Origin: Enterobacteria phage KhF1 | Sequence record: KT184313.1 | Reading direction: 5' to 3' (one strand) | Length of the DNA stretch: 64,000 nt | Shown here: positions 35,517 through 37,030 of the stretch, in pieces | How positions within the stretch are numbered: position 1 is the first letter of the stretch | Layout: every line of letters starts with the position of its first letter | Notes under the pieces: model-generated | Databases searched by the model: none | Told to the model about the DNA's origin: nothing | Seen by the model: only the letters and a program-made list of their open reading frames with translations | Translations under genes and position numbers: made by a program

Positions 35517-35646
35517 ACTTAAGAGTCTTTTAAAAGGGTTTTTAAGTGATGTTTGGTAAAGTATGGTTCTGTCCGGTAATGCGATGTATGCTATGGTTTG
35601 GTGTGGGTAGTTAGTCTCAGCTACATTAAAATGAGACTTACCTTTT
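35517..35646 (+). repeat. GT-rich repeat element, copy 1 (ends in hairpin AGTCTCA/TGAGACT + T-run); approximate boundaries
   Basis: Shares TCTTTTAAAAGG, TGTCCGGT core and terminal hairpin architecture with copies 2 and 3. Confidence 0.5.
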
Positions 35647-35790
35647 TAAAAGGTCTTTAAACAGGGTCTTTTAATAAGGTCTGGTCGTGTCCGGTTCGGT
35701 AGTGTTGGGCTTGGCTTGGTCTGGTCTGGTAAGGGTGGATGGTAGTAGCCACGTTAAAAATCTACCAAGTTTCTAAAGAGTCTTCTGTTG
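35647..35790 (+). repeat. GT-rich repeat element, copy 2 (ends in hairpin TGGTAG-N-CTACCA); approximate boundaries
   Basis: Near-identical 5' part to copy 3 (CTTTTTAAAAGGTCTTTAA..AGGGTCTTTTAAT.AGGT); GGT-rich centre. Confidence 0.55.
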
Positions 35791-35842
35791 AGGGTTCTTT
35801 ACAAACAACTTAACAATCAACTAAAGTGTGGAGCTAAATGCT

Positions 35843-36430
35843 ATGAAACTGTTAAATATCAAAATCACTGGTACTCGTCCTTTCCTGAGCCACGCTGATA
35901 CGCTGTCAGACCCATTAAATCCTCTGACAAAATATCACAAGTCTCTGTCCAGTAAACGTAAAAAGACTGACGAAGACTATGCGCTCTTAGCAGAAAGTCA
36001 ACTGGTAACTTCTTGTTACTACGATGAGCAACTAGGTTTTGTTATGAACGGTGAGATGATTGAGGCTTGTATCAAGTCTGGTGCAAAACTAAACAAACTT
36101 GGTAAGGTAATTGACCGAGCCATTATGCTGACAGATGTAGTCTTCCCAATGACTATCAAGAATTGTCCAGCAAACCCACAAGAACTTGCTAAGAATCCAG
36201 ACTTTATCTATGCTAAGTCTGTTAAGATTGGTACAGCACGAGTTATGAGCTACCGTCCAATCTTCCGTGATTGGTCTGTAGAGTTTGGTTTGATGTTCGA
36301 TGAAGAGCAAATCACCAAAGAGGAACTTCTGATGGTTCTTGAAAATGCTGGTAACCTTTGTGGTGTAGGTGATTGGCGTCCACGCTTTGGTCGTTTTTCT
36401 GTAGAAGTTATTTCAGAAGGTAACGTTTAA
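35843..36430 (+). CDS. Hypothetical protein (about 195 aa)
   Basis: ORF 35828-36430 with likely ATG start at 35843 after GGAG. Confidence 0.45.
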
Positions 36431-36432
36431 TT

Positions 36433-36873
36433 ATGAATACGAAAGCATTAGCAGCAAAGTTTAGTTACGGTGACACTGTATCACATTCTGAGATGGACAC
36501 CTTCTTAGGTATTGTGAAACCAACTTATCAAGGTGACATTGTTAAGTACGAAGATGAAATGAAGGCTTATGCGCTTACACGTCTAAACCGACTTGAGAAG
36601 TTTATTGAGAAGCTTCTTAAAGAAGAGAAGATTTATCTGGTTGCTTCAATGGGTGTTGGTTATCGTGTGGTTGAACCTAAGCATCAAGCAACTATTGCAA
36701 AACGTAAAATGTCTGGTAAGATTGGTCGTGCTTTAAAGCAAGCCACTCAAGCAATTGAGAATGTGAACACTATGGCACTTAGTCATCAAGAACGTTCACG
36801 GTTGATTGAACAGCAAAACCATTTAGCTGCTATGAAAGCTAACATTAACAAGCAACGCAGAAAACCTTTCTAA
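36433..36873 (+). CDS. Hypothetical protein (146 aa), basic C-terminus
   Basis: ORF 2 nt after upstream gene; followed by strong terminator. Confidence 0.45.
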   Translation: MNTKALAAKFSYGDTVSHSEMDTFLGIVKPTYQGDIVKYEDEMKAYALTRLNRLEKFIEKLLKEEKIYLVASMGVGYRVVEPKHQATIAKRKMSGKIGRALKQATQAIENVNTMALSHQERSRLIEQQNHLAAMKANINKQRRKPF

Positions 36874-36882
36874 GTTGACTAG

Positions 36883-36908
36883 GTAGCCTCTTCGGAGGCT
36901 CCTTTTTA
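36883..36908 (+). terminator. Intrinsic terminator (AGCCTC-TTCG-GAGGCT + CCTTTTT)
   Basis: GC stem 36885-36900 with UUCG tetraloop and T-run. Confidence 0.7.
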
Positions 36909-37030
36909 AAAGGTCTTTAAGAGGGTCTTTTAATGAGGTACGGCGCGGTTAGGTAAGGTCTGGTAGGGTAGGGTGAGGTTTGGTATGGAAGGATGGCAGT
37001 AGCCTTATAAAAAATCTGCCAAATAAGCTA
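36906..37030 (+). repeat. GT-rich repeat element, copy 3 (ends in hairpin TGGCAG-N-CTGCCA); approximate boundaries
   Basis: 5' part near-identical to copy 2; terminal hairpin carries compensatory T/A to C/G change relative to copy 2. Confidence 0.55.

Follow-up and report, generated by a model that had tools for sequence, protein, structure and literature searches.

VIPR (Viral Interference Programmable Repeat) is a newly described kind of RNA-guided DNA recognition, in which a gapped code carried by pentamer repeats is read by an ancestral RAMP protein. A VIPR locus comprises two genes, vipr and the accessory gene vap, located between long non-coding regions. Vipr, a minimal RAMP homolog of about 20 kDa, works with vrRNAs of 9–16 YNNGG repeats that end in a 3' tail pseudoknot; GGY is conserved in these RNAs and NN is hypervariable (bioRxiv 10.64898/2026.04.26.720920 and 10.64898/2026.04.26.720927). 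Each repeat is bound by one Vipr protomer that sequesters GGY. NN pairs with DNA, every third target base is skipped, and the R-loop triplex silences transcription. The vrRNAs of SUSP1 are ~100-nt RNAs that co-purify with Vipr, and the ribonucleoprotein binds double-stranded DNA. Natural targets follow the NNx rule, usually with the skip at codon wobble positions, and lie in competing mobile elements. The SUSP1 clade is delimited by >90% Vipr identity (bioRxiv 10.64898/2026.04.26.720920 and 10.64898/2026.04.26.720927). Here we analyze a 64,000-nt stretch of Enterobacteria phage KhF1 (KT184313.1), hereafter the window, and describe a locus of a Felixounavirus that almost certainly belongs to type II VIPR and to the SUSP1 clade, with three vrRNAs placed around vipr and vap1. 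Systems of this kind are known already, though only through very recent preprints, and the KhF1 locus is a further, previously unannotated example.

The vipr and vap1 genes of phage KhF1

The assignment to type II VIPR and to the SUSP1 clade is based on the two protein genes of the locus, as the product of 35843–36430 is identical to SUSP1 Vipr at 192 of 195 positions and the product of 36433–36873 to its SUSP1 neighbor at 145 of 146. Such values place the KhF1 Vipr well within the >90% limit of the clade. The two genes are flanked by intergenic regions of 395 and 239 nt, which corresponds to the minimal two-gene locus with long non-coding borders, and every defining feature of type II VIPR that a sequence can reveal was found. 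The genes and the parts of the three vrRNAs are as follows.

35509..35551, + strand: 5' spacer hairpin of vrRNA-1, module A (CCAGCATCACTTAAGAGTCTTTTAAAAGGGTTTTTAAGTGATG); RNA fold −23.2 kcal/mol, z = −4.6
35552..35606, + strand: vrRNA-1 repeat tract, 11 pentamers (YNNGG); code TT AA AT TC CC AA GA AT AT TT GT
35607..35638, + strand: vrRNA-1 3' tail, H-type pseudoknot (GUAG / AGUCUCA / CUAC / UGAGACU), then CC-U5
35641..35679, + strand: 5' spacer hairpin of vrRNA-2, module B (CCTTTTTAAAAGGTCTTTAAACAGGGTCTTTTAATAAGG); fold z = −2.9
35680..35734, + strand: vrRNA-2 repeat tract, 11 pentamers; code CT CG CC TC AG TG TT TT CT CT AA
35735..35767, + strand: vrRNA-2 3' tail pseudoknot (GUGG / UGGUAG / CCAC / CUACCA)
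35843..36430, + strand: vipr, RAMP/Cas7-like protein of 195 amino acids; 192/195 identical to PDB 36pp "SUSP1 Vipr protein", E = 8.5e-129
36433..36873, + strand: vap1, vipr-accessory protein of 146 amino acids; 145/146 identical to the product of the SUSP1 gene immediately downstream of vipr
36901..36938, + strand: 5' spacer hairpin of vrRNA-3, module B, from folding and comparison with the consensus hairpin
36939..36988, + strand: vrRNA-3 repeat tract, 10 pentamers; code AC GC TA AA CT AG AG GA TT AT
36989..37021, + strand: vrRNA-3 3' tail pseudoknot (AAGG / UGGCAG / CCUU / CUGCCA)

The family profile also matches PDB 36pp "SUSP1 Vipr protein" (E = 9.8e-80). An AlphaFold2 model of Vipr (mean confidence, pLDDT, 94.5) finds Csm3/Cas7 RAMPs as the best PDB folds at E ~4e-5, with Csm3 and type VII Cas7 at E ~1e-4. 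Thirteen of the 14 named RNA- or DNA-contacting residues are present (H17, K33, R39, E71, M72, K82, G87, K88, R138, C173, D177, W178 and R179). Residue 175, which is located within the G-loop sequence, is V both in the window protein and in the SUSP1 chain deposited as 36pp. In the structure preprint, the Y3 pocket is said to be lined by T175 (bioRxiv 10.64898/2026.04.26.720920 and 10.64898/2026.04.26.720927), probably a slip of numbering or text. Searches of both proteins against Pfam and PADLOC returned no matches, and PHROGs gave just "unknown function" families.

(GGTNN)n arrays that start right at stop codons also flank distant Vipr homologs (37–40% identity, from higher-GC phages of other types). 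The exact pattern (GGTNN)6GGT, with 21 specified bases, is found in at least 120 IMG/VR contigs, and we estimate the chance expectation at well under one. These arrays and pattern matches together indicate that the proteins and the arrays belong together.

Three vrRNAs with distinct guide codes

Three homologous non-coding units lie on the gene (+) strand, two of them in 35509–35767 and one at 36901–37021. We parsed them as unit 1 (35509–35638), unit 2 (35641–35767) and unit 3 (36901–37021). Each begins with a 5' hairpin of 16–18 bp, continues with 10–11 GGY-NN pentamers of period 5, and closes with a 3' H-type pseudoknot. The order of the locus is a predicted promoter (35455–35482), the two tandem units, the two genes, a terminator-like hairpin (36885–36906) and the third unit; a DNA ligase gene (34347–35447) stands just upstream of the promoter. 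An array scan of the window detected period-5 GGT arrays only at these loci, all on the + strand. The 17-mer TTTTAAAAGGTCTTTAA is common to copies 2 and 3 and occurs exactly only at 35644 and 36904 in the window. Motif matches at 18485, 27811 and 43374 were considered as extra copies and rejected, being ordinary coding sequence or a terminator.

The sequence-only reading, made before any database search, had described three diverged copies of a GT-rich element with a shared 5' part and a terminal stem-loop, behind a promoter at 35455. The promoter is there, with 11 of 12 consensus positions matched, and so are the two tandem copies and a third after two genes, with boundaries right to a few bases. 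The shared 5' part holds for copies 2 and 3 (CCTTTTTAAAAGG...TTTTAATRAGG), and copy 1 carries a different module (CATCACTTAAGAG...TTAAGTGATG). What had been taken for a GT-rich center is indeed present, and it had gone unrecognized as a strict period-5 array of GGY-NN pentamers with hypervariable NN. Likewise, the stem-loop exists as only helix 2 of an H-type pseudoknot. The change from TGGTAG/CTACCA to TGGCAG/CTGCCA between copies 2 and 3, which had been read as selection on structure, is real, and further compensatory changes occur in both helices of the pseudoknot. The elements are non-coding, as proposed. Of the functions offered, small RNAs and protein binding would both apply by analogy with the near-identical SUSP1 elements, which are ~100-nt RNAs that co-purify with Vipr.

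The tracts of 11, 11 and 10 units fit the published range of 9–16 YNNGG repeats, with vrRNA-1 degenerate in 5 units. For the tract statistics we used 84 homologous units, taken from the window and from 21 related loci, and in 82 of them the tract length is an exact multiple of 5 nt. They comprise 64 unique tracts with 9–19 units each, mostly 11–12. Across the 84 vrRNAs, Y3 is always a pyrimidine (100% C or T), G2 is G in 97% and G1 in 82% of the cases, and N4 and N5 show an entropy of 1.9 bits each. Relatives that are 92–95% identical in the flanking genes differ in unit number, and their unit centers are wholly different. The vrRNAs are arranged 2+1 in the window, 2+3 in EF202P1 and SapYZU01, and 1+3 in SUSP1.

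Five of the 11 units of vrRNA-1 lack the GG doublet, four through A or T at G1 (AG, TG, TG, TG) and one through C at G2 (GC). The tract is identical in phage EF202P1 (L001), and with its degenerate units it is kept in at least five phages (the window, L001, L003, L006 and L014). The vrRNA-2 tract is identical in L008. The guide of vrRNA-3 (36939–37021) equals the first downstream guide of L013, L015, L016 and L019 (~3595–3700) minus the last two units, and it carries the tail that normally closes the last vrRNA, which differs from the tail in those four loci. This apparent fusion of guide and tail is consistent with a deletion through recombination between repeat tracts, by which the intervening vrRNAs would have been lost.

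The tail pseudoknots covary. Helix 1 reads GUAG/CUAC in copy 1, GUGG/CCAC in copy 2 and AAGG/CCUU in copy 3. In helix 2, the difference between copies 2 and 3 is a compensatory change from U-A to C-G at pair 11–32, so that the tails of vrRNA-2 and vrRNA-3 differ by compensatory changes in both helices. In the two tail classes, 93% and 100% of cells pair, and 4 and 3 pairs, respectively, have changed on both sides, and sliding the partner columns lowers the pairing to 23–56%; as there are only about four independent tail types, few independent evolutionary events lie behind this covariation. The vrRNA-1 class accounts for the 100% value and for 3 compensatory pairs (slid controls 23–34%). The vrRNA-2 tail type also follows vrRNA1 of SUSP1 and is found on orphan vrRNAs of satellites (see below). 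The 5' modules are hairpins too: module A has a consensus of 18 bp with 4 G.U pairs (13 variants), and module B a consensus of 16 bp in which the variation is mostly in the loop (21 variants). As each carries four G.U pairs, the module A and B hairpins form only in + strand RNA.

The window is from a Felixounavirus; its best match is phage KhF2 (99.2% identity), and 230 phage records match it. In the KhF2 record only the ligase is annotated within the matched part. The vipr gene, vap1 and the vrRNAs are without annotation or "hypothetical" in every GenBank record inspected, and the repeats go unmentioned in the Felix O1 genome paper. Rfam (gathering threshold) and tRNA scans of the window returned no matches. 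No array of identical direct repeats separated by unique spacers was found in the window, and the only protein genes of the locus are vipr and vap1.

Predicted target sites in an E. coli satellite

A BLAST search of the locus against 5,426 complete E. coli genomes revealed vrRNA-like segments in 34 chromosomes. The segments sit in an integrated element of ~11 kb with genes for a serine recombinase, a baseplate protein and a tape-measure protein, often together with an HNH endonuclease. It is inserted at yecE (DUF72), in the tonB-yciI interval and at other sites, and the satellite family occurs in 473 of the 5,426 genomes. The product of the window gene at 50122–50670 (− strand) and the satellite "phage baseplate protein" are 93% identical, and the tape-measure gene at 50691–52922 (− strand) is 45–75% identical to the satellite counterpart, in segments. 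This homology of structural genes links the satellite with its helper. Given the prevalence of the family and the baseplate identity, the phage is a plausible helper and the satellite a plausible parasite.

We compared 60 unique guides of the clade, drawn from 22 related phages, with six satellite loci. When one target nucleotide was skipped, 3–15 of the guides per locus reached an NN match of at least 85%; with a skip of 0, 2 or 3, none of them did. The published 1-nt skip rule is thus reproduced on independently collected data. The NNx target forms of the window guides are TTgAAgATgTCgCCgAAgGAgATgATgTTgGT (vrRNA-1), ACgGCgTAgAAgCTgAGgAGgGAgTTgAT (vrRNA-3) and CTgCGgCCgTCgAGgTGgTTgTTgCTgCTgAA (vrRNA-2). 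L149, the first satellite examined, held no good match for them, and the matches came as more satellite variants were sampled. No self-target was found within the 64-kb window, where the best score of the three guides was 16/22, equal to background.

vrRNA-1 has a perfect 22/22 match in the IMG/VR contig L155, which belongs to the same satellite family. The site is located in a gene for a protein of 236 amino acids, in frame (peptide LKMSPKEIIFV), with all skipped bases at wobble positions. The match is 20/22 in L152, and across 15 satellites the homologous site varies between 16 and 22 of 22. vrRNA-3 reaches 18/20 in three satellites, in the leader of the same gene, 50–78 nt upstream of its ATG and downstream of a promoter-like site; an exact full-length NNx match for this guide was absent from the viral, genome and metagenome collections. 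None of 300 permuted guides attained the satellite scores of 20/22 for vrRNA-1 or 18/20 for vrRNA-3. In four satellites vrRNA-2 reaches 17–18/22 at a homologous site within the serine-recombinase gene, where the skipped bases again fall on wobble positions; this target is borderline.

The satellites themselves (L149–L163, for example L152 5250–16600) encode a large serine recombinase, and they are often riddled with insertion sequence (IS) elements. Their 236-amino-acid gene is misannotated as "transposase"; Pfam gave no match for the protein. In L159 (7720–7820, − strand reading), the vrRNA-3 target lies in the loop of a long inverted repeat, TTCAGTTTTTAAAAAGCACAC ... GTGTGCTTTTTAAAAACTGAA, which contains AAGTCTCTTCTAAG, resembling the motif AAGAGTCTTCTAAG of the phage 5' module.

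Six satellites carry one orphan vrRNA of 11–14 units, as at L149 14948–15050, L150 14984–15086, L152 14973–15075 and L153 14983–15070. Its tail is identical or near-identical to the tail of the phage vrRNA-2, with a compensatory change from A-U to C-G in helix 2 in L152 and L153. A tblastn search of the 15 satellite loci revealed neither vipr nor vap1. The orphan vrRNAs may hijack the Vipr of the helper phage against rival satellites.

Proposed mechanism

Small-RNA expression, Vipr binding, the filament and R-loop-triplex structure and silencing are known from the literature on SUSP1, whose Vipr is 98.5% identical. If the KhF1 system works alike, transcription on the + strand would begin at the strong 35455 promoter for vrRNA-1 and vrRNA-2, and vrRNA-3 would arise by read-through or from another start. 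Each vrRNA would then be released as an RNA of ~90–100 nt with 10–11 GGY-NN pentamers and a 3' pseudoknot cap. One Vipr protomer per repeat would bury GGY, leaving the exposed NN to pair with a DNA strand that reads NNxNNx..., and the bound complex would block transcription of the target. The target would be the ~11-kb integrated E. coli satellite that shares baseplate and tape-measure genes with the phage. Most likely, then, the system suppresses a parasite of the phage, and our data support the view of VIPR as a means by which Felix O1-like phages act against the parasites that exploit them.

Alternative explanations

Several points weigh against this picture. The best target of vrRNA-2 is 18/22, a score that one of 300 permuted guides equaled, and no exact full-length NNx match for this guide was found in the viral, genome and metagenome collections. 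A terminator-like hairpin precedes vrRNA-3; no promoter was detected for this vrRNA, nor any sigma-70 promoter inside the 5' modules. How efficiently vrRNA-1 would be loaded is uncertain, as 5 of its 11 units are without the GG doublet. Expression, the 5' and 3' ends, loading onto Vipr and silencing in this phage would follow by extrapolation from SUSP1, and the two source papers on VIPR are 2026 preprints.

The degenerate units could also mean that vrRNA-1 is decaying into a pseudo-guide and has ceased to be loaded by Vipr, which would leave the locus with effectively two guides. SUSP1 has just one upstream vrRNA, and according to the preprints its H17 and D177 read G1, and perturbation of GGY abolished silencing. 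We believe this to be doubtful, since at least five phages keep the tract with its degenerate units, it has an in-frame target with a perfect 22/22 match, 18% of all units in the clade have a base other than G at G1, and frequent internal degeneracy and NNNNG-type repeats are reported in the preprint. Retention in several phages and the perfect natural target suggest instead that Vipr loading tolerates a grammar looser than the GGY consensus, with NG in place of GG. That this tolerance, a role of the bracketing hairpins (see below) as processing signals, and the use of helper Vipr by the satellite orphan vrRNAs all hold together is a tentative proposal, on balance rather unlikely as a whole. 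These three details go beyond the preprints and may be small additions to them.

The early ideas were of other kinds: a TRAP-like ring-protein site, an R-loop origin, a two-tetrad G-quadruplex, a primase-site cluster, an RfaH ops-like site and a telomere-like repeat. They were dropped because the neighboring protein was identified as Vipr and the NN code matches foreign DNA. The sequence-only reading had also offered structured leaders, and a TRAP-like version of that idea, in which a ring-forming or cooperative protein reads one GGU per subunit of a cis-acting leader or intercistronic RNA and regulates translation or termination of the adjacent genes, draws on the about 11–12 triplets at 5-nt spacing. 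In distant phages, moreover, the arrays stand directly between stop codons and the next ribosome-binding site. However, the protein encoded next to the repeats is Vipr, a RAMP whose helical filament presents NN for DNA pairing. Pure protein binding would leave NN free to drift, whereas the NN codes match satellite DNA under one spacing rule only and nothing in cis. A leader is the poorer reading, and we regard the TRAP-like version as very improbable, while a cis effect on vipr expression alongside the guide function is possible.

Could the element act at the DNA level, with a G-rich non-template strand behind the promoter serving as an R-loop replication origin, a cluster of primase sites or a G-quadruplex tract? 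A strong promoter is indeed followed by tracts with GG every 5 nt on the non-template strand, and replication genes (ligase, polymerase) surround the locus. Yet the turning points of the cumulative GC skew are not here but near 30 kb and 41 kb, at switches of gene orientation; the hairpins (4 G.U pairs each) and the pseudoknot need G.U pairs and so form in + strand RNA only; and such an element does not call for hypervariable NN together with foreign-DNA matches. We give this idea next to no credence, and as little to a functionless minisatellite or recombination scars. The varying copy number among close relatives (2+1, 2+3 and 1+3) and the shuffling of tracts and tails between phages would suit such scars, but the position-specific constraint (Y3 100% pyrimidine, G2 97% G), the tract lengths in multiples of 5 nt, the compensatory pair changes and an association with vipr that is kept down to 37% protein identity would not. 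Repeats that lack covariation, which the sequence-only reading had named as what would speak against its view, are not what we see. That reading missed the link to vipr and vap1 and the role as trans-acting guides against foreign DNA, which we maintain as the most probable function of the three vrRNAs.

Promoter, flanking hairpins and array architectures elsewhere

Besides the vrRNAs, further elements were recognized around the genes.

35455..35482, + strand: sigma-70-type promoter TTGACA-16-TATACT, 11/12 consensus match, upstream of vrRNA-1, vrRNA-2, vipr and vap1
35775..35800, + strand: third module-like hairpin (AAAGAGUCUUC-UGUU-GAGGGUUCUUU), read from the sequence, between the vrRNA-2 tail and the vipr ribosome-binding site
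36885..36906, + strand: intrinsic-terminator-like hairpin AGCCUCUUCGGAGGCU followed by CCUUUUU
37021..37067, + strand: inverted repeat of 19 nt behind the vrRNA-3 tail; it overlaps the promoter-like site that follows (TTGACA at 37040)

The function of the promoter at 35455 is predicted from its sequence, and vrRNA1 of SUSP1 has the same promoter in front of it. At 35470–35511, the −10 region of the KhF1 promoter and the transcript start are covered by an inverted repeat, TGGTGAGTA ... TACTCACCA, which SUSP1 and further relatives also keep and which may serve as an operator or form a 5' structure. The hairpin at 35775–35800 repeats the GAGTCTTC...GAGGGTT motif of module A, and module B of vrRNA-3 begins with the U-tract of the hairpin at 36885–36906. 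G.U-rich hairpins of 11–18 bp (modules A and B, 35775–35800 and 37021–37067) stand on both sides of every vrRNA; they could set the vrRNA ends as processing sites, for instance of host RNase III or RNase E. A small HTH_3 (Cro/C1-type) regulator is encoded at 37703–38002, four genes past the locus in the same + strand block.

Among the matches listed (L028–L147, at least 120 loci), (GGTNN)n arrays occur in viral contigs with a GC content from 28% to 73%. Some are long and of higher order, with no obvious SUSP1-type tail between the superunits. At L037 4590–5060 (− strand), seven superunits of 9–12 pentamers are split by GGCTAATG, right after a vipr-like gene, and at L125 3220–4395 about 17 superunits split by GGCAGTT fill an intercistronic region of 1.2 kb. 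Such long arrays are probably other VIPR array architectures.

Comparison with known systems

The locus adds three new guide codes, each with an assignable satellite target site (that of vrRNA-2 being borderline), and two of the guides, vrRNA-1 and vrRNA-3, converge on one 236-amino-acid satellite gene and its leader. A scan of raw sequence can detect VIPR by its RNA anatomy alone. The practical value is one of annotation, and the known mechanism is unchanged.

The closest relative is the type II VIPR system of SUSP1. The two share Vipr (98.5% identity), Vap1 (99%) and the site between the ligase gene and a helix-turn-helix regulator block, as well as the promoter, the two 5' modules, the tail types, GGY-NN tracts of 10–12 units and the target satellite family. 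They differ in that SUSP1 has 1 + 3 vrRNAs, whereas the window has two upstream and one downstream. All three guide codes of the window are unlike the four of SUSP1, one window guide has many degenerate GG positions, and vrRNA-3 resembles a first-position guide fused to a last-position tail, as judged against L013, L015, L016 and L019.

Class 1 CRISPR-Cas complexes, in which Cas7 or Csm3 assembles on a CRISPR RNA, have in common with VIPR the RAMP fold with G-loop and thumb, one protomer per periodic guide unit, base flipping at a fixed period, and a variable guide joined to a conserved handle. Their period is 6 nt with 5 pairing, whereas that of VIPR is 5 nt with 2 pairing, and the VIPR target skips 1 nt in 3. 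The VIPR type described here is phage-encoded and has no CRISPR array, cas1/cas2, protospacer adjacent motif or nuclease. Its guides are whole genes with their own tails, while those of CRISPR are spacers between identical repeats.

The TRAP-(G/U)AG system of trp attenuation in Bacillus likewise uses about 11 trinucleotide motifs at a period of ~5 nt, one for each subunit. TRAP, however, forms a closed ring, acts in cis on a single leader and has uninformative spacers, whereas Vipr is a RAMP that forms a helical filament, and its NN "spacers" are the information. ToxI arrays of type III toxin-antitoxin systems and other tandem-repeat non-coding RNAs of phages resemble the locus in their tandem RNA units placed before a protein gene, processed to unit length and bound by protein. 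ToxI consists of identical 36-nt repeats that inhibit a toxin RNase, with no pentamer code, hypervariable positions or DNA targeting, in contrast to the three vrRNAs of KhF1.

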